58,994 nt of DNA, taken from NCBI GenBank assembly GCA_964558645.1, contig CAZLEV010000017.1:1-58994 (forward strand). The letters run 5' to 3'. Shown here one piece after another: positions 34,806-46,394 of the stretch. The stretch is from an uncultured archaeon. Lineage in GTDB: Archaea; Asgardarchaeota; Thorarchaeia; Thorarchaeales; Thorarchaeaceae. The first letter of the stretch is position 1; every line of letters starts with the position of its first letter. Under the pieces are notes generated by a model. The model saw nothing but the letters and a program-made list of their open reading frames with translations, had not been told where the DNA came from and ran no database searches. Made by a program: the position numbers and the translations under genes.

Positions 34806-35723
34806 ATGGTCAAAGGATACGAAGTATCTGAGGATGGGACTCTTCAGGAAGTGGAGCTTACTAAGGAGACCCTTGAGTCTGGTAGTGTTGTCTGTGTGAT
34901 CGATGACGCAACAAAGAGCATCTATCTCTGGAAAGGGACAGGAGCGGGAATTCGAAAGAAATTCATCGGTGCAAGGGTTGCCACAAACCTGCGGACAGAA
35001 TACGGGTTTCACTTCAAGGTGAGACCTCTTGATGAAGGAGAGGAGCCACCAACTTTCTTCACAGCACTCTCAGGTGAAACAGCAGCTGAGCCGGTAATCA
35101 AGCCTGGGGAAACAGCACCACCATCACCTCCCACCCCGAAGACACAGCCCACAACACCAGAGGCCCCGTCAACTACATCAGCACCACCCCCAAAGCCAAA
35201 ACCAGCCAAACCAAAGACTGCCGATGTTCCATCGAAACCACCTACCCCACCACCAACTAGAGCACCGCCCAGTTCTTCGGCTTCTAGTACATCTTCAGCC
35301 ACTGTTGCTCCCAAGGTGCCGTCTGGCGCAATAGAAGAAATGATCAAGGAACTCGAAGATAGTGAACCTCCAGAAGGATATAGAAGAGAACTACTCATCG
35401 TCTACAACGAACTGTTCACTGTGGCAGAACGAACCATAAGGCTCTTCGATCAGGTGAAGGTGGAGAGGAGGTTTGAGAAGGTGAAAGAGCCTCCTGAAGG
35501 AACGTTCATGGCAGAGGGCTTCATCCCTAGAGTTATAGTAAAAGACGGCAGAGTGCTGGGTATTGAGTTACTCAAAGGAACGCCTGACGCGATACTCAGT
35601 CCAATCAAGTCCGAGATGAAAGAACGCCTTGGCGACCTTATCAGTTTCTTCAAGTCGGAAGTTGAGCAGGGTGAGGTCCCCTCAGCCGAGACCAAGAAGA
35701 AGAAGAAACTCGTAGCCAAGTGA
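34806..35723 (+). CDS. Asgard gelsolin-domain protein, 1DGelX-like (gelsolin domain, Pro-rich linker, X domain, basic tail)
   Basis: VIDDATKSIYLWKGTGAGIRKKFIGARVA...LDEGEEPPTF gelsolin core; PPEGYRRELLIV second domain; KKKKKLVAK C-terminus. Confidence 0.85.
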   Translation: MVKGYEVSEDGTLQEVELTKETLESGSVVCVIDDATKSIYLWKGTGAGIRKKFIGARVATNLRTEYGFHFKVRPLDEGEEPPTFFTALSGETAAEPVIKPGETAPPSPPTPKTQPTTPEAPSTTSAPPPKPKPAKPKTADVPSKPPTPPPTRAPPSSSASSTSSATVAPKVPSGAIEEMIKELEDSEPPEGYRRELLIVYNELFTVAERTIRLFDQVKVERRFEKVKEPPEGTFMAEGFIPRVIVKDGRVLGIELLKGTPDAILSPIKSEMKERLGDLISFFKSEVEQGEVPSAETKKKKKLVAK

Positions 35724-35787
35724 GTCAGTCCGGCAAAGGTATTTATCATGTACTGTGGTTAGCCCATCAGTTGGAGACGAAGCAATA

Positions 35788-36177
35788 ATGTCAACCCATC
35801 TTGATCCAGCCAAGGAGAAGGAACTAGTCGAACTGCTCATGGGACTGACTGACATCACAGACCTTGATGCCATAGCAGTTGTAAGCAAACAGGGAGTTAA
35901 GTTGGCTTATTTCGCCACAGAGGAATCTGATGCCGACCCCGACCTCATGGCCGCAGTCAGTGCCGCTCTTCTCGTTCAAGGAGAAATGGCATCGGATAAA
36001 CTGTATTTGGATGAGCTCTATGAGGTTATCGTCAGGGGAAAGGATGGCTTCGTCGTCCTATCACATGCAGGCGATTTTCTGATCATGGGTTCGGCAAAGG
36101 ATCTTACGTCAATGGGACTCGCAATCACCCAGATGAGGAAGTACGCCAAAGAGATTGGTGATCTACTCGCCGCGTGA
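35788..36177 (+). CDS. Roadblock/LC7 domain protein
   Basis: AIAVVSKQG...DPDLMAAVSAALL...EVIVRGKDGFVVL...MGLA pattern. Confidence 0.9.
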   Translation: MSTHLDPAKEKELVELLMGLTDITDLDAIAVVSKQGVKLAYFATEESDADPDLMAAVSAALLVQGEMASDKLYLDELYEVIVRGKDGFVVLSHAGDFLIMGSAKDLTSMGLAITQMRKYAKEIGDLLAA

Positions 36178-36285: not shown

Positions 36286-37491
36286 GTGAAACTCGATATT
36301 ACATCACGTGCTGCAGACTTGAGATATGCTATTCGCGACATCGTCGTTGCGGCAAAGGAGTACGAGAAGAAAAGAGGGAAAACGCCCCTATACCTGAATA
36401 TCGGAGACCCGCTCAAGTACGACTGGGAGACCCCTAGATTCATGATAGACGCACTTCACGAGGCCTCATCAAAAGGGAGGAATGGATACGCTCCTTCTGA
36501 GGGCGAGGATGAGCTCCGTAATGCAGCAGCTGAAAAGGAGAAGCGTGTTAACGGCACTGATATCGACCCTGAACGGATGATCATAACTGCAGGGGTATCT
36601 GAGGCGATTCAGTTTCTGACCGGCGCGTTAATCTCGGAGGAAGCCGAATTTCTCGTACCAGGACCCGCATATCCACCGTACATCTCATACATCAGTTATT
36701 TCGGTGGGAAGCCCGTAACGTATAGAACCATAGAGGAAGAAGGCTGGATTCCTGATGTGGATGACCTGAGAGGAAAGATAAACGAGAGAACCAAGGGAAT
36801 TCTGGTCATAAACCCAAACAACCCGACAGGAGCAGTCTATGATAGAAACACCCTCAAACAGATTGCAGACATCGCAGGTGAATACGAACTCCCACTTGTA
36901 TCTGACGAGATCTATGACCAGCTCACTTTTGATATGAAACAGACGCCAATGGCGGGGGTTGTGGGGGACGTGCCCATGATAGGATTCAACGGTATAAGCA
37001 AAGTCTACCTAGCACCCGGTTGGAGAATTGGATACGTCTACTTCCAAGATGAGAACGGCGAGCTCGAACCCCTAAGAGATGCCATGGTACGCCAAGCCAG
37101 GATCAGGATCTGCACTAACACCCCCACCCAGCTTGCAGCTGCTGCTGCCCTCCGAAGCGATGGAGGCCACATCAATGGAATGCTAGAGCGTCTCAGAAAG
37201 CGACGACAGATAATTTGGGAACGTTTGAACGACATTGATGGGGTCTCAGCATCTCTCCCTCAGGCAGCGTTCTACATAATGGCAAAGGTGGAGCTGGACG
37301 GAATCTGGAGAAATGACCATGACTTCGTTCTCGACTTGCTCAATGATACGGGAGTGGTATTCGTTCCCGGTTCCGGGTTCTGTGCCGACTACGGCCGTAA
37401 TCATTTCAGAAGCGTATTCTTGCCGCCACCAGATATGATAGCTGAGGCAATGGACCGATTAGAGAGATTCATGGACAAGAAGCGAATCTAG
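36286..37491 (+). CDS. Aminotransferase class I/II (alanine aminotransferase-like)
   Basis: YAIRD, LNIGDP, INPNNPTG, SDEIY, GISKVYLAPGWRIG, VPGSGF. Confidence 0.95.
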   Translation: MKLDITSRAADLRYAIRDIVVAAKEYEKKRGKTPLYLNIGDPLKYDWETPRFMIDALHEASSKGRNGYAPSEGEDELRNAAAEKEKRVNGTDIDPERMIITAGVSEAIQFLTGALISEEAEFLVPGPAYPPYISYISYFGGKPVTYRTIEEEGWIPDVDDLRGKINERTKGILVINPNNPTGAVYDRNTLKQIADIAGEYELPLVSDEIYDQLTFDMKQTPMAGVVGDVPMIGFNGISKVYLAPGWRIGYVYFQDENGELEPLRDAMVRQARIRICTNTPTQLAAAAALRSDGGHINGMLERLRKRRQIIWERLNDIDGVSASLPQAAFYIMAKVELDGIWRNDHDFVLDLLNDTGVVFVPGSGFCADYGRNHFRSVFLPPPDMIAEAMDRLERFMDKKRI

Positions 37492-39263
37492 GAAAGCTCT
37501 TGTCTCTTACTCTCGATAACCTCACGAATCTTGCTTCGGATTGAATCGATCAATTCCTTGGCAAACTTCAGACCAGCCGGCTCGCGCAAGGAAGCAGCGG
37601 TCAGGTAGGGGTCATTGATAATCCTCTCAATCCCTTCACGTAGTACGGCGACTTCAGAGCTGACACGAGTCACTGTTGTTCGGATCTCGGTTCTTCTCGC
37701 AGCTTCAGAGGGGTCATCAGTTGTGGCGGCACTTGGAAGCCTTGAATGTAGCTGCTCAAGCTGCTCTGCAATATCTGAGGCCTTCTTATGCAGTACCTTG
37801 GTTCTTTCAACCAGCGAAGAACGGGTTTCAAGGTCAGTCTTCTGTTCATCTTTGACGCTATCGAGCTCGGTCTCGAAATCTCTTGCCAGTGTCTTCAGCC
37901 GTTCCATCAGGAGATCCTCAATTGGACCCAGGTGCTCTCTAGCGAATTTCTTCTTCTCTTCCAATCGAGCGGTTTCAATGCTCTTGATCAGGTCTTCATC
38001 TCCAATGACGGAGTCCAGGGTATTGACAAGCTCGTTCACAACTGCAATCCTCGACTTAGCCGACTGCAATTCCTGATTCTCAATGTTGGTTCTTGCTCTG
38101 CTGAGAGCTTGTGAAACGCCTTCTGCTATTCTGTCGAGAGGTTCGGCTTGGAACGAAGAAACATCAATAGAGGACTTCAACAGACTGAGCCGTGCCTCCG
38201 TGACATCGGCGTCATGGAGTAGTTTTTCCGTCATTTTGAAATCGCGTAGAATGAAGGTCGCGGGACCGGCTTGGAATGAGTATTCTGAGTTCAACATGTC
38301 TCTATAGGAACCACGCAGAACTACCTCGTATTCTCGTTCTCCACTCATGTCTTGTGACGCCTTTGCAATGAGTTCGAGATTCAGACTGTCATCGGGTCCA
38401 AGTTTCGACAGCTTGGTCGTCTTATCGCCCCTGACAAGAACTAGCTCTTCGTCTATAAACCACTCAAGAGATAGTCCGAGCGCATCACCATCACCATTGT
38501 TTGTGATGGTGCCCCGTATAGGAAACTCTTCTGTGAAAGTCATGTCCACAGGAAGATCCAGTTGCCCGACGAGTTTCGGCACCTTAAGTTTGCCTCGAAG
38601 CATCTCTCGTGCCATGTCAAGACCCTTGTCTACATACTTCGTGAAATCCTGAGCATTTGCATTTGTCAGAGCTGACTTGAGCTCGGTGACAGTAGCATTC
38701 TCGGCACTTGAGAAAGAGGAGATATCAACAGACTCGATGGCAGATTGTAACTGCTGAGGTATTTGTGTGATTCTGACAACGCCCGGATAGGTCAGCTTCG
38801 AGGCATTCTCAGCACAGAACGCTCTGGCCTTGTTGAATCCTTCAGCATCTTTTCCAATCATTAAATACATCATGCTGGCGGCAGTGGCAAGAGCTGCACC
38901 CTTACGAGTCTCTGCATCTTCTCCCCACATGAGATGCTCATCTGATGCAGCCAGAAGGTCTTCTGCAGCCCTCTCATAGGCATCCATTGCCTTTTGACTC
39001 TCTGCAAGTGTTAAGTAGACATCACCGGCAGCACACATATTGCGTGCAGCGCTCTTATAGCTCTTGGAGGATCGGAATTCTCCAGCGGCCTTCTTGTAGG
39101 TCTCAGCAGCTTGCGTATAGATCTTCTGTGCCTCTTCGATTTCTCCACGTTGTTCAGAAAGCTCAGCTGCGATCTCGTATTTCTTGCCGGCCTCCGTAAA
39201 GGATTGTCTCAAGGACTCCTTCGTCGCCTCTTCAATGATACGTCGAACGTCTTCATCAGACAT
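37488..39263 (-). CDS. SNAP-like TPR solenoid, Ig-like (CARDB-type) domain and long coiled coil; candidate arcadin-4-like
   Basis: EAGKKYEIAAE/QAAETYKKAA/KAMDAYERAAE repeats; ITNNGDGDA...RGSYRD beta domain; heptad-rich C-terminus. Confidence 0.75.
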   Translation of the reverse strand: MSDEDVRRIIEEATKESLRQSFTEAGKKYEIAAELSEQRGEIEEAQKIYTQAAETYKKAAGEFRSSKSYKSAARNMCAAGDVYLTLAESQKAMDAYERAAEDLLAASDEHLMWGEDAETRKGAALATAASMMYLMIGKDAEGFNKARAFCAENASKLTYPGVVRITQIPQQLQSAIESVDISSFSSAENATVTELKSALTNANAQDFTKYVDKGLDMAREMLRGKLKVPKLVGQLDLPVDMTFTEEFPIRGTITNNGDGDALGLSLEWFIDEELVLVRGDKTTKLSKLGPDDSLNLELIAKASQDMSGEREYEVVLRGSYRDMLNSEYSFQAGPATFILRDFKMTEKLLHDADVTEARLSLLKSSIDVSSFQAEPLDRIAEGVSQALSRARTNIENQELQSAKSRIAVVNELVNTLDSVIGDEDLIKSIETARLEEKKKFAREHLGPIEDLLMERLKTLARDFETELDSVKDEQKTDLETRSSLVERTKVLHKKASDIAEQLEQLHSRLPSAATTDDPSEAARRTEIRTTVTRVSSEVAVLREGIERIINDPYLTAASLREPAGLKFAKELIDSIRSKIREVIESKRQELS

Positions 39264-39332
39264 GATTTGTTCAGACTCCTTTCCATGTTGGCAGTATTCC
39301 TTGAGAGTGCTCTTGGAGGACCCGAATAGTCC

Positions 39333-39623
39333 TCAATAGACCTCTCTCGGAGAATGCTTCAGACGATCTGGAAGTGCCCCTCCATGACCTTCGAAAACGA
39401 GTTCATAACCACGCCCGATTCGGCCCTTGCTGGCGGTCTGAAATCCCGACTTCTGGATTGAGCGTGCGTTTCTCTCAGCAGCTCTTCGCTGTATCATGCT
39501 TGTACCACTTGGTACAACAAGAACCAGCTTCTTCTGTGAGTCATCCACCTTCAGCGTGATATCAGTAGACGGCTGACTAGAGCATTCATGGAATTGGTTA
39601 TCACGATATTCTAGAGTTGTCAT
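39333..39623 (-). CDS. Small 96-aa protein with degenerate gelsolin-like pattern; candidate arcadin-3-like
   Basis: Start re-called at ATG 39623 with purine-rich SD-like sequence; LKVDDSQKKLVLVVPSGTSMIQRRAAERNARSI parallels VIDDATKSIYLWKGTGAGIRKKFIGARVATNL of the 34806 gene. Confidence 0.65.
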   Translation of the reverse strand: MTTLEYRDNQFHECSSQPSTDITLKVDDSQKKLVLVVPSGTSMIQRRAAERNARSIQKSGFQTASKGRIGRGYELVFEGHGGALPDRLKHSPREVY

Positions 39624-39775
39624 CTGGACATTCCCATCCTGAAACCTTCTAGTGTTTCTGTAGCTTGCTAGCATATTAGCATTTGGCCGACGAAGCAAAA
39701 AGAAAAAGAGAGGACAAGAGGTGTTCCCAGCACACCCAGAGCGAGGGGAAACCTCCTGCAACTACTCCAACCAGT

Positions 39776-40051
39776 TTAGCTTGGTGGGGGTGGGGGTGGA
39801 GGAGTGTCGTCCTGCCTGGTGTCAACTGGTCTGGTGACTGAATCCCGCTTCTTGGAAGTGAAGAAGAAGCCAACCAGAATGAAGATGAGGCCCACAATGG
39901 CCACAACTGCTCCGATGATGACCTGATAGTCTTCCACAAACACGTATCCCATGCCTGGAAGCAGTGCAATCACTGCACCAGCAATCACGAGAAGTGCACC
40001 CAAGCAGACAGGTCCGGTTCGAACGTATTCACGCCATGTTAGATAAGACAT
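39776..40051 (-). CDS. Small two-TM membrane protein with C-terminal poly-proline (PPPPPPPS*)
   Basis: Two hydrophobic helices, KKR after TM2, codons cct cca ccc cca ccc cca cca before the stop. Confidence 0.75.
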   Translation of the reverse strand: MSYLTWREYVRTGPVCLGALLVIAGAVIALLPGMGYVFVEDYQVIIGAVVAIVGLIFILVGFFFTSKKRDSVTRPVDTRQDDTPPPPPPPS

Positions 40052-40137
40052 TGTAATTTCTCCTAGTCGCGAAAGCCCAGTGGCTACTCTTTCTAGTCAG
40101 TCTTCTGGATTGATTTAAGATTGTCGGGGGTATATTC

Positions 40138-41013
40138 TCACTCTACTCTGAACGTGACCACACAACCGGTAGAAGATGTGTTCACCATGATGTCAACACC
40201 TGTTAGCTCGCTGACCTTTTTCGCAAGGATCTCGTGATATGCACAGGGGTATCCTGCCGGCAACAAAGTGCCTTCAGGATCAATTCTTCGTGTCAGCTCG
40301 AGAAGATAGCACGAACCTGTTTCGATTGTTTCCCGATCTGTCCCGGTCCTAGGTATCTGACTTTCATAGGAGCAACTCTGGATAAGCTCTGCAAAACCAC
40401 GGATCAGATCTTCTGAACTACCGCCAGCACTCCAGAGCCCGATGAGTGTTTGCGCTGCCTGCTCAAACATTTCCTCTAAGTGTCCCTCTGGCAGATTCGA
40501 GCCGTAGACAGCCATTTCTACAAGCGCTACAGCTCTCCCGTCTGTGCTGCTTTTCCATAGGTTTCGATCCGCAATCTTTTCGAGCGTGGGCACCGCGCCA
40601 AGCTTTGGAAGATCCAGTGCAGTTTCAGGTTCGACGGACTCGGCCATGCCTACAGAGCCAGTATCTGGATGTGCACTGCTTGCCGAGGCCTCCGCAGGAC
40701 CCTCATCATCCCGCACCAAATCTGGAATCTCAAAGTTGGGAGCGACGCCGGACTGCTGATATCTTCGGGCAAACTGCATTAGACGACCAGCGCACATAGC
40801 CACAGCATGACGGCTTAATCCCTCAATCCGCGCATGTCCATAGACTATCCCCACTAGATTATCCAGATTGAGATCGTTCATCGTCTTCTCGGCGATAATC
40901 TTCTTTCCGCGTACTACTCTAGCAGCCCATCGCTCGTTCATCACTCCAGCCTGTGCAGCATAGCTAGTGTTTGTGATGCCAATCAGCGGTGAGATCGGGT
41001 AGAAATCACTCAT
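40138..41013 (-). CDS. Candidate arcadin-2-like N-terminal domain fused to a V4R/MetOD1-like Cys-containing C-terminal domain
   Basis: PISPLIGITNTSYAAQAG...WAARVVRGKK..LSRHAV N-terminus; low-complexity linker; SCYLL...YPCAYHE...TGCVVTF. Confidence 0.6.
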   Translation of the reverse strand: MSDFYPISPLIGITNTSYAAQAGVMNERWAARVVRGKKIIAEKTMNDLNLDNLVGIVYGHARIEGLSRHAVAMCAGRLMQFARRYQQSGVAPNFEIPDLVRDDEGPAEASASSAHPDTGSVGMAESVEPETALDLPKLGAVPTLEKIADRNLWKSSTDGRAVALVEMAVYGSNLPEGHLEEMFEQAAQTLIGLWSAGGSSEDLIRGFAELIQSCSYESQIPRTGTDRETIETGSCYLLELTRRIDPEGTLLPAGYPCAYHEILAKKVSELTGVDIMVNTSSTGCVVTFRVE

Positions 41014-43751: not shown

Positions 43752-45938
43752 CTAGATGTAACCAGGGATACTCTTAGATCCTTCAGGAGCCCTGCGATAG
43801 ACCCTGTCTTTCTGGTCCTGATATCGCTTGACATCATCCTGAGAGATGCTTGGTCGAACCTCATCCATGGCCTGCCTGAAGTGTTTCATCTCAACTGGTT
43901 TGACAGTCCAGTCATCTCTGACTGCCGCCATGGCCGCTTCTCTGCACAGTCCCTCAATATCAGCACCCGAATAGCCCTCCGTCATTTGACTGAGCTCTTC
44001 GAGGTCAACATCGTCGGCAAGAGGCATGTCACGGGTATGCACCTTGAATATCTCAACCCGAGCCTCTTTGTCAGGAGGAGGCACGAAGACCACATTATCG
44101 AATCGTCCGGGTCTTAGAACTGCAGGGTCAAGTATGTCAGCCCGATTAGTGGCACCGATAACAAGAACATTCTGAAGAGCCTGCATTCCATCCAGCTCTG
44201 CAAGGAACTGGTTGACTATTCGCTTGCTTACACCAGTTTCATCTCGTTGGCTTCTCGAAGCCATCACAGCATCGATTTCGTCGAAGAATAGGACACAGGG
44301 GGCAGTCTGTCTTGCCTTCTTGAATATCTCACGCACTGCCTTTTCAGATTCTCCAACGTATTTGTTGAAGATTTCAGGGCCGCGAATCGAGATGAAGTTG
44401 GCCTCGCTCTCCGTCGCGACAGCCTTGGCCAATAGGGTCTTGCCAGTACCTGGTGGACCGAACAGCAGAACGCCCTTTGGTGCTCGAATCCCCATATCCT
44501 TGAAGACATCCGGATGATTCAGCGGGGCTTCAACAGCCTCTCGGAGTTGCATCTTCACTTTCTCCAGGCCGCCAACATCACTCCAGCGCACGTTTGGTTT
44601 CTCAACAAGCACTTCTCTCAGTGCTGATGGCGAAACCTCTGCCAGAGCAGCATCAAAGTCACTCTGAGTCACATAGAGGTCATTCAAGATATCCGCGGGG
44701 ATATCACCGGTTTCAGGATCAACATGCGGGAGCGCCCGTCTCAGCGCCTGCATTGCAGCCTCTCTTGCAAGAGATGCGAGGTCTGCACCAACAAAACCAT
44801 GAGTGGTCGCAGCAAGACGTTCGAGATCAAGGTCTTCCTCCAGCGGCATAGAACGAGTATGGATCTGAAGAATCTCAAGTCGGCCCTGCTTGTCCGGAAC
44901 ACCGATTACAATCTCCCGGTCGAATCGCCCAGGTCGCCTGAGTGCTTCATCAACATCATCAACTCTGTTGGTAGCACCTATGACTATGACTTGCCCCCGT
45001 CCAGCTAAGCCGTCCATCAGCGATAGGAGCTGAGCAACTACTCTTCGCTCAACCTCTCCTGATACTTCGGCTCGCTTTGGAGCAATGCTATCCAATTCGT
45101 CGATGAAGATGATGCTGGGCGCGTTCTTCTCTGCCTCTTCAAAGACCTCTCTCAGTTTCCCTTCTGACTCACCATAGAACTTGGACATGATCTCTGGGCC
45201 ATTTATCAGCCGAAACGTAGCACCAGACTCGTTGGCGACAGCCTTCGCAATCAGTGTCTTGCCAGTTCCCGGTGGACCGTGAAGCAATACACCCTTAGGA
45301 GGTGTGATACCCAGCCTCCTGAATAGCTCGGGCGACTTCATGGGTAGCTCGACCATCTCACGAATCTTCGTGAGTTCCTTACCAAGGCCACCAATGTCTT
45401 CGTATGTCACTTGAGGAACTGTGACATCTTCGGGCTTGGCGGGCTTTGTCAATACCTCTAACTCAGTGCCTGCCACGACCCGAACATGCTTTCCGGGAGC
45501 GGCCGCCGTGACCGTGAATTGCAGTCCCTGACCTATTGAGGAAATGATCACAATATCTCCACGTGTCACAGGCCTATTCAGAATCTGCTGCTTCACATAG
45601 TTCGCAAAACCAGACTCGAATCTTACAGGTTGACTGGGAGCGAGTACAACTCGGCTCGCTTCAGGGATAGTCACAGCTGATACTTCAACCATCTCACCTA
45701 GTTTGACACCGGCATTGGCTCTTATCAAGCCGTCCATCCGTATCATGTCAAGTACTTCATCTTCCTTCAGACTAGGCCAGCATATCGCAACTGTTTCTTT
45801 TGATCCTTTCAGGAGTACATAATCACCAGAGCGCACTCCAAGTTTGTTTCGTACTTGGGAATTCAGTCGAACTATACCTCGACCTTGGTCTTTCGGCATC
45901 GCAGCTGCGGCTTTCAGTCTTACACTGTCGTCTGCCAT
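43752..45938 (-). CDS. cdc48: CDC48/VCP/VAT-family AAA+ ATPase
   Basis: N-domain DQGRGIVRL; two AAA modules ([35 protein letters not shown]); HbYX-like GYI end. Confidence 0.97.
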
Positions 45939-45959
45939 CCTACTCTCGCACCTTCTCCT

Positions 45960-46394
45960 CTATTTTCCTCTCAATTCTACTTCTCTGAAGTCAGAACTAG
46001 TATCTTCGTTGTCGGCCTTAACCAGTTCAAGCTCAACTATGCCATGGTTGAATGACATTGAAGACTTCTCACTGTCAATCGGATATGGTAGTTCTTCAAC
46101 CAAGTCGTTGTGCTGGCGGCTATTGAATTCGAGCTTCAACTGCCTTCCCTCAATCTCAGCGACGGGTTCCAGATTGTTAGTGAGCCCATCAACTACGATA
46201 ATAATCCTATCATCTAGTTCTATCTTCTCTACACGAAGGTCCTCTTCCCGCGATTCACTGACAGATTCATTGTCGGTTCGCGAGATTCTGAATCTCATTC
46301 TTGCTTCATTTGGACCCATTGGTATCGTCTTGCCGAAAATCTCTTCTAGCATTCGGCGCATCATCTTATCGAAATCATCGTCTATCATTATCAT
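45960..46394 (-). CDS. Hsp20/alpha-crystallin-like small heat shock protein
   Basis: FDKMMRRMLEEIFG N-terminus, ELPYPID..KSSMSFNHGIVELEL; directly upstream of cdc48. Confidence 0.8.
   Translation of the reverse strand: MIMIDDDFDKMMRRMLEEIFGKTIPMGPNEARMRFRISRTDNESVSESREEDLRVEKIELDDRIIIVVDGLTNNLEPVAEIEGRQLKLEFNSRQHNDLVEELPYPIDSEKSSMSFNHGIVELELVKADNEDTSSDFREVELRGK

Follow-up and report, generated by a model that had tools for sequence, protein, structure and literature searches.

A conserved polyproline-tailed membrane protein and a divergent gelsolin-fold protein in a Thorarchaeal gene neighbourhood: possible links to profilin and actin, and none found to the arcade cluster

Does a run of four co-oriented minus-strand genes on a Thorarchaeal contig descend from the arcade cluster of Thermoproteales, and could it organise actin at the membrane? 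The contig, CAZLEV010000017.1 (58,994 nucleotides; contig C17 of the Thorarchaeota genome G000), was analysed whole and is called the window below; its origin is consistent with the close relatives of gene i, all of which are Thorarchaeotal. An initial annotation had described the four genes, here named i to iv, as an Asgard descendant of the arcade locus from which actin had moved and which had gained a membrane-tethered polyproline adaptor. The four open reading frames (ORFs) are present exactly where that annotation placed them (Table 1), and the two small ones, ii and iii, are truly coding since their divergence from an orthologous locus is concentrated at third positions (codon-position mismatches of 25/13/57 and 17/13/57, respectively). 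The arcade reading was refuted at the level of sequence and profile. A membrane-anchored actin-organising role is plausible, judging from sequence, mostly on account of genes ii and iii taken separately and not of the cluster as such.

The proline tail of gene ii and the genome's profilin

Gene ii codes, as initially described, for a 91-aa protein with two predicted transmembrane helices that ends in seven prolines followed by a serine. Its 36 distinct orthologues display two hydrophobic helices, a basic cluster, an invariant RDSV and a tail of 24–25 aa. Five to seven prolines are found among the last 12 residues in all 36, in a run of 6–7 in 34/36 and of exactly seven consecutive prolines in 29/36, and the spacing between the run and the membrane is constant, at ∼20 residues from helix 2. 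As read from these alignments, the proline tail is under strong selection; it is probably cytoplasmic, a prediction made with the positive-inside rule from the basic cluster alone. It contains no recognisable actin-binding motif. The gene is single copy as a rule, with strong matches in 50 of the 59 other genomes of its own family and in the sister family, and none outside the order Thorarchaeales among 251 Asgard genomes. Only 2 of the 3,683 ORFs of the genome contain Pro7, gene ii being the sole membrane protein of the two. Further polyproline proteins observed in the genome are one of 461 aa, soluble and with Pro7 close to the C-terminus (G000:C5:76408-77793), and one of 1,288 aa, a membrane protein in which Pro5 comes right after a basic cluster (C19:9222-13088).

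The proline tracts of formin FH1, Ena/VASP and WASP recruit profilin. The genome does encode a profilin (C2:358968-359348): it is the orthologue of the solved Thorarchaeal profilin 7PBH (E 4e-53) and retains 7/7 of the residues named as the polyproline site of that protein, which bound a VASP-type proline peptide at 250–500 µM (PMC8410842). The Pfam Profilin model misses this gene, which was located via its relatives. It lies in tandem with a profilin-like paralogue (∼30% identical; the two span G000:C2:358506-359348, or L172:3507-4349, minus strand), and contig C12 carries another, more distant profilin-like ORF near 103.6 kb; all three escape the Pfam model.

Our best lead, which we infer from sequence, is that gene ii would be a native membrane ligand for this profilin. 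With the FH1, Ena/VASP and WASP tracts it shares a run of about seven prolines in a flexible tail near the membrane, in a genome that holds a cognate profilin. It is however non-homologous to these proteins, possesses no FH2, EVH or WH2 domain and, as an integral membrane protein of 91 aa, carries just one tract. The machineries that would use polyproline in Asgard archaea are described as ‘yet to be discovered’, though Thorarchaeal and Heimdall profilins were reported to bind polyproline (PMC9433394), and no factor akin to formin or VASP is named in a recent study of crawling Asgard cells (PMC13716822). No Thorarchaeal or Asgard membrane polyproline protein was found in the literature, within an incomplete collection of papers. 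Gene ii offers a candidate user for the reported polyproline binding of Asgard profilins.

Gelsolin fold of gene iii and architectures of genes iv and i

The initial annotation had aligned the core of gene iii by eye with a gelsolin domain, and structure comparison bears out the gelsolin fold. The model of the 96-aa protein (counted from the ATG common to the orthologues; pLDDT 80) was searched against 48,161 chains: ranks 1–17 are all gelsolin domains, ranks 18–37 are mostly gelsolin or ADF/cofilin, and the best match is Thorarchaeal ProGel (PDB 7c2f; Z 8.9, rmsd 3.0, 72 residues aligned, 14% identity), compared with Z 5.1 for Sec23. In a language-model atlas gene iii likewise lies next to gelsolin-bearing clusters. 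At the sequence level, no Pfam gelsolin match was obtained and a search of the PDB found nothing. Like ProGel (PMC7444086), gene iii is a single small domain of gelsolin/cofilin fold; it differs from ProGel by a signature of its own (a basic helix, then GF and G-x-R-x-G) and by the absence of W-x-G. The true ProGel orthologue is a separate gene on contig C12, and contig C7 carries a paralogue of gene iii (59%). The family occurs in 154 of the 251 Asgard genomes, some members having long Pro-rich extensions; it would escape Pfam-based counts of Asgard gelsolins and was not found characterised in the literature searched. A WH2 reading of the C-terminal LKHS of gene iii is doubtful, given that in the alignment this segment falls on the E-P-x-x-F helix with which the gelsolin fold closes.

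For gene iv the proposed SNAP/TPR–Ig–coiled-coil architecture was borne out, each part at weak E-values: SNAP was matched in 9/22 members of the family, CARDB in 9/22 and TRAP-beta in 8/22. The best natural match is alpha-SNAP (E 4.5e-4, ∼60 residues covered). The Ig-like domain (CARDB/TRAP-beta-like, ∼229–335) carries the few invariant residues and the helical tail is variable; ATPase motifs are absent. Gene iv thereby bears a weak resemblance to alpha-SNAP and TPR-solenoid/Ig scaffolds, its Ig and coiled-coil parts being without counterpart in SNAP. Haemagglutinin matches were set aside as coiled-coil composition noise. Full-length relatives are present in Thorarchaeota and in many Heimdall-type families, and were not found in Loki-type families.

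A gene-iii relative lies 2–4 kb from a gene-iv orthologue in 11/14 genomes of family f22 (all of one genus; we infer from the source labels of its proteins and their relatives that the family is Hodarchaeales) and 5–22 kb from it in family f5, in 9/9 genomes with both on one contig. The iii–iv pair is thus modestly supported by two lineages besides Thorarchaeota. In f22, five loci (L102, L103, L104, L108 and L109) display a fixed run composed of the gene-iv orthologue, a divergent PRTase-like gene, a Pro-rich protein with an acidic conserved tail, an extended protein of the gene-iii family, a TrmB–coiled-coil gene and, in 4/5 loci, a Ras-like GTPase. In families f4 and f16, roadblock genes are located 0.6–2.3 kb from gene-iv orthologues.

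Gene i also has the architecture first described, that is, an N-terminal domain, a flexible linker and a Cys-bearing domain of probable V4R-type fold (AlphaFold model, pLDDT 85; linker residues 104–129 disordered, pLDDT <50). In the model the N-domain (residues 1–95) forms a three-stranded sheet with two helices. The C-domain contains conserved C235, P256-C257, H260 and C284, a probable metal site, and the Cys/His set is maintained across Asgard relatives. Its structural matches are TRAPP Bet3/TPC6, BcsD, YslB and DmpR/PoxR sensors, at Z of only 5–6, along with ATC-hydrolase-like clusters (atlas TM 0.58–0.72 by target). By these consistent matches it probably has the V4R/TRAPP-Bet3/H-NOX fold (Thorarchaeal TRAPPC3 7yh2, YslB, DmpR/PoxR), with conserved Cys/His residues, and is set apart by fusion to an unnamed Asgard domain and by the lack of any family match at sequence level; a search of the PDB with the gene i sequence returned nothing. 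For the N-domain there was no family match and no clear solved fold. When the whole-protein model was searched, WW (Z 4.9) and EVH1 (Z 4.2) matches to the N-domain were within noise, and the notion that this domain might read the Pro7 tail of gene ii is only a lead.

The N-domain was detected in 154/251 Asgard genomes, mostly in one copy, with varying partners: a zinc ribbon in Loki-type genomes, a C-terminal position in family f3, a standalone form in f12. Several Heimdall-type families yielded no gene i. Of the 24 matches from an exhaustive profile search, those with a name are Asgard and two are repeat artefacts. In Atabeyarchaeia the gene i orthologues are 3 kb away from that of 1DGelX, and in Jordarchaeales and f12 they adjoin the same aminotransferase; the neighbourhood therefore predates Thorarchaeota. 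The Loki-type fusion of the N-domain with a C-terminal zinc ribbon (L048, L049, L056–L059 and L062) adjoins, in a conserved arrangement, two or three mutually similar genes of 310–530 aa.

Comparison with the arcade cluster

Twenty-one arcade loci were fetched with a short crenactin motif and then verified by NCBIfam, Pfam and PDB. They contain arcadin-1 (Pfam, PDB 5ly5), crenactin, arcadin-2 (203 aa), arcadin-3 (56 aa) and arcadin-4 (794 aa), in the order rkd1-crenactin-rkd2-rkd3-rkd4 in every Thermoproteales locus that is long enough. The order assumed in the initial annotation (rkd-2, crenactin, rkd-3, rkd-4) is therefore wrong: rkd2 lies downstream of crenactin, so that gene ii does not occupy the position of actin, as had been proposed for it.

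The proposed homologies fared no better. Genuine arcadins exceed the cut-offs of the NCBIfam Rkd2, Rkd3 and Rkd4 models (300 bits for rkd2 with NF053561), genes i–iv are left unmatched by them, and the genome yields no match to Rkd2 or Rkd3 at E ≤ 1. Gene i, said to resemble arcadin-2, gave hhalign probabilities of 0.3% and 0.4%, and NF053561 matched neither it, nor 19 of its relatives, nor anything else in the genome; as to structure, peptide 187–203 of arcadin-2 is solved and the arcadin paper holds no solved core. Gene iii, likened to arcadin-3, gave 0.1% and no match to NF053562, and has a 96-aa gelsolin fold against the 56 aa of arcadin-3. Gene iv and arcadin-4 gave a blastp E of 0.25, with no match to NF053563. 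In the reverse direction, profiles of the Asgard genes found zero arcadins among 900 ORFs. Arcadin-4 is moreover a Rad50-derived ATPase (PMC9389158), whereas the Walker A motif is absent from 37/37 gene iv orthologues.

Descent from the arcade locus is thus rejected by family models, profile–profile or pairwise comparison. A likeness to the arcade cluster does remain (PMC5173319; NF053560-NF053563): both are co-oriented archaeal runs with a large coiled-coil gene last and a suspected cytoskeletal role. The Asgard locus has however no homologous gene, no actin and no SMC ATPase, and differs in gene order and in having separate putative promoters. What speaks for genes i–iv being what is left of the Thermoproteales locus after the loss of actin is a loose size pattern (a medium, a small and a large coiled-coil gene); given the differing order, the negative Rkd models and hhalign values below 0.5%, the missing P-loop of gene iv and the sizes of arcadin-3 and gene iii, we regard such descent as exceedingly improbable. 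A spurious link between the Asgard and crenarchaeal arcade systems is thereby removed.

Linkage of the four genes and competing explanations

Terminator- and TATA-like elements between the genes had been noted initially, with the suggestion that the genes may not form one transcript. Both kinds of element are genuine, and they are conserved: 67–76 nt upstream of the gene ii ATG lies a TTAAATC box (0.004 expected per window scanned), a CTAATATG-type box precedes gene iii (0.014 expected per window scanned), with the counts of loci given in Table 1, and a pyrimidine tract lies 3' of gene ii at the same place in orthologous loci. The boxes before genes ii and iii and the hairpin after gene ii therefore suggest about three transcription units, probably gene i, gene ii and genes iii–iv, rather than a single operon. 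A sigma-70 promoter scan was set aside as inapplicable to archaea, and a scan against Rfam gave no match.

The explanation that we tentatively favour, at somewhat less than an even chance, is that these genes lie in an old Asgard neighbourhood (with 1DGelX and roadblock) which would serve, at least in part, the control of actin at the membrane. Gene ii would be inserted in the membrane and bind the genome's profilin through a cytoplasmic Pro7 tail, thus raising the local supply of profilin–actin as FH1 or VASP proline tracts do; as the protein itself lacks an actin-binding domain, it would act by docking rather than by nucleation. Gene iii may be a calcium-independent, probably weak ProGel-like binder on the actin side, or an adaptor that retains the fold, with gene iv as its likely scaffold partner. 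Gene i would be a probable sensor or adaptor and has the weakest tie to the others. The more specific proposal, namely that gene ii is profilin's membrane polyproline ligand, a standalone equivalent of FH1/VASP, and that genes iii and iv form an Asgard-wide gelsolin-fold/scaffold pair acting on the delivered actin, is rather unlikely to hold in full.

Several findings weigh against a role in actin control. Gene iii is only 14% identical to ProGel, its profile is weakly related to canonical Asgard gelsolins (probability 4–6%), and the DWG (W-x-G) motif, invariant in the aligned ProGel, 1DGelX and 2DGel proteins, is absent from alignments of its family, which have no Trp there; ProGel itself binds actin weakly (Kd 337 µM; PMC7444086). 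Profilin is reported to bind polyproline with low affinity, and other proteins read polyproline too. The genes for actin (contig C4) and profilin (contig C2) are unlinked. In Thorarchaeota a block of ∼20 kb keeps its gene order, a mannosidase, an ABC transporter and Cdc48 included, and shared synteny within this group is therefore of little weight. Foreign genes separate ii from iii in G230 and G242, an unrelated 241-aa gene takes the place of gene iii in G236 (L123:9704-10429), gene ii directly precedes gene iv in the sister family where i and iii are missing, and genes iii and iv are 70–300 kb apart in three other families. The idea of a four-gene module is accordingly weakly supported.

The same facts would suit genes i–iv being unrelated neighbours held together by slow rearrangement, with Pro7 structural or read by another protein and gene iii no longer in contact with actin. 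Order conserved along with housekeeping genes, separate promoter-like boxes, a terminator, insertions and losses within the cluster and differing taxonomic ranges (gene ii in one order; i and iv not found in different families) all fit. We consider it somewhat unlikely nonetheless, in view of the iii–iv proximity that recurs in two distant families and of two gelsolin-fold genes, a roadblock gene and the proteome's sole Pro7 membrane protein within 6.3 kb. A module for membrane trafficking or tethering would make gene i a Bet3/V4R subunit, gene ii a membrane receptor, gene iii Sec23-like, gene iv SNAP-like with its Ig domain and the roadblock protein a GTPase regulator. TRAPP subunits are among the best matches of gene i, alpha-SNAP is that of gene iv, whose solenoid and Ig are combined as in coat or tether subunits, Sec23 matches gene iii, and roadblock genes (f4, f16) or a small GTPase (f22) occur near the relatives. 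Yet these matches are all weak and to common folds, the Cys/His set of gene i is typical of V4R-type sensors, and gene iii is clearly nearer to actin-binding gelsolins than to Sec23 (Z 8.9 vs 5.1), which makes such a module distinctly unlikely.

Polyproline runs stall ribosomes, and gene ii could then be a pause or attenuator peptide, stalled at Pro7-stop with helix 2 still in the exit tunnel, the stall coupling membrane insertion or aIF5A supply to hairpin read-through into iii–iv. The terminal position of the run, ∼20 residues past helix 2, and the terminator-like hairpin that follows agree with this. However, a conserved promoter-like box precedes gene iii itself, the locus tolerates genes inserted between ii and iii, and in G236 and G112 a different gene lies downstream with the tail unchanged; we hold the idea to be very unlikely. 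In the favoured explanation, actin control at the membrane, the proline tail would serve as a binding site.

The genome's single actin match is on contig C4, adjoining 2DGel, and the cluster itself holds no actin. In another genome, three short copies of the ∼20 C-terminal actin codons occur near the actin gene (G182:C13, 25–34 kb), and the actin match there contains an in-frame stop, either an assembly artefact or a variable C-terminus.

The order of genes around the cluster, with the mannosidase upstream and the aminotransferase, roadblock and 1DGelX genes downstream, was maintained in 12/12 fetched Thorarchaeal loci as far as the contigs extend. The literature searched yielded no paper describing these gene families.

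Table 1. Features of the locus, with positions in the window
Feature	Position	Strand	Basis
Gene i, 291 aa: N-domain, linker and V4R/Bet3-type domain	40138..41013	(-)	AlphaFold, structure matches
Promoter-like (TATA-like) box of gene ii	40112..40125	(-)	28/36 loci
Gene ii, 91 aa, two predicted membrane helices, Pro7 tail	39776..40051	(-)	36 orthologues
Terminator-like hairpin and U-rich tract 3' of gene ii	39690..39775	(-)	fold -27.4 kcal/mol
Promoter-like box of gene iii	39672..39688	(-)	25/34 loci
Gene iii, 96 aa, divergent single gelsolin fold	39333..39623	(-)	model, structural matches
Gene iv, 591 aa, SNAP/TPR-like solenoid, Ig-like domain and helical/coiled-coil tail	37488..39263	(-)	weak family matches
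Aminotransferase class I/II	36286..37491	(+)	PF00155 E 1e-58
Roadblock/LC7 protein	35785..36177	(+)	PF03259 E 5.6e-11
1DGelX-type gelsolin, Pro-rich linker	34806..35723	(+)	W-x-G core aligns with ProGel-type proteins

The aminotransferase gene is convergent with gene iv and overlaps its stop codon. The 1DGelX-like gene, initially put at about 2 kb, is located 1.8 kb from gene iv; its Pro-rich linker is long and the roadblock gene directly follows it (window 34806-36177). The same conserved Thorarchaeal block also includes a Cdc48/p97-like AAA ATPase and an Hsp20-like gene (window 43752-46394).

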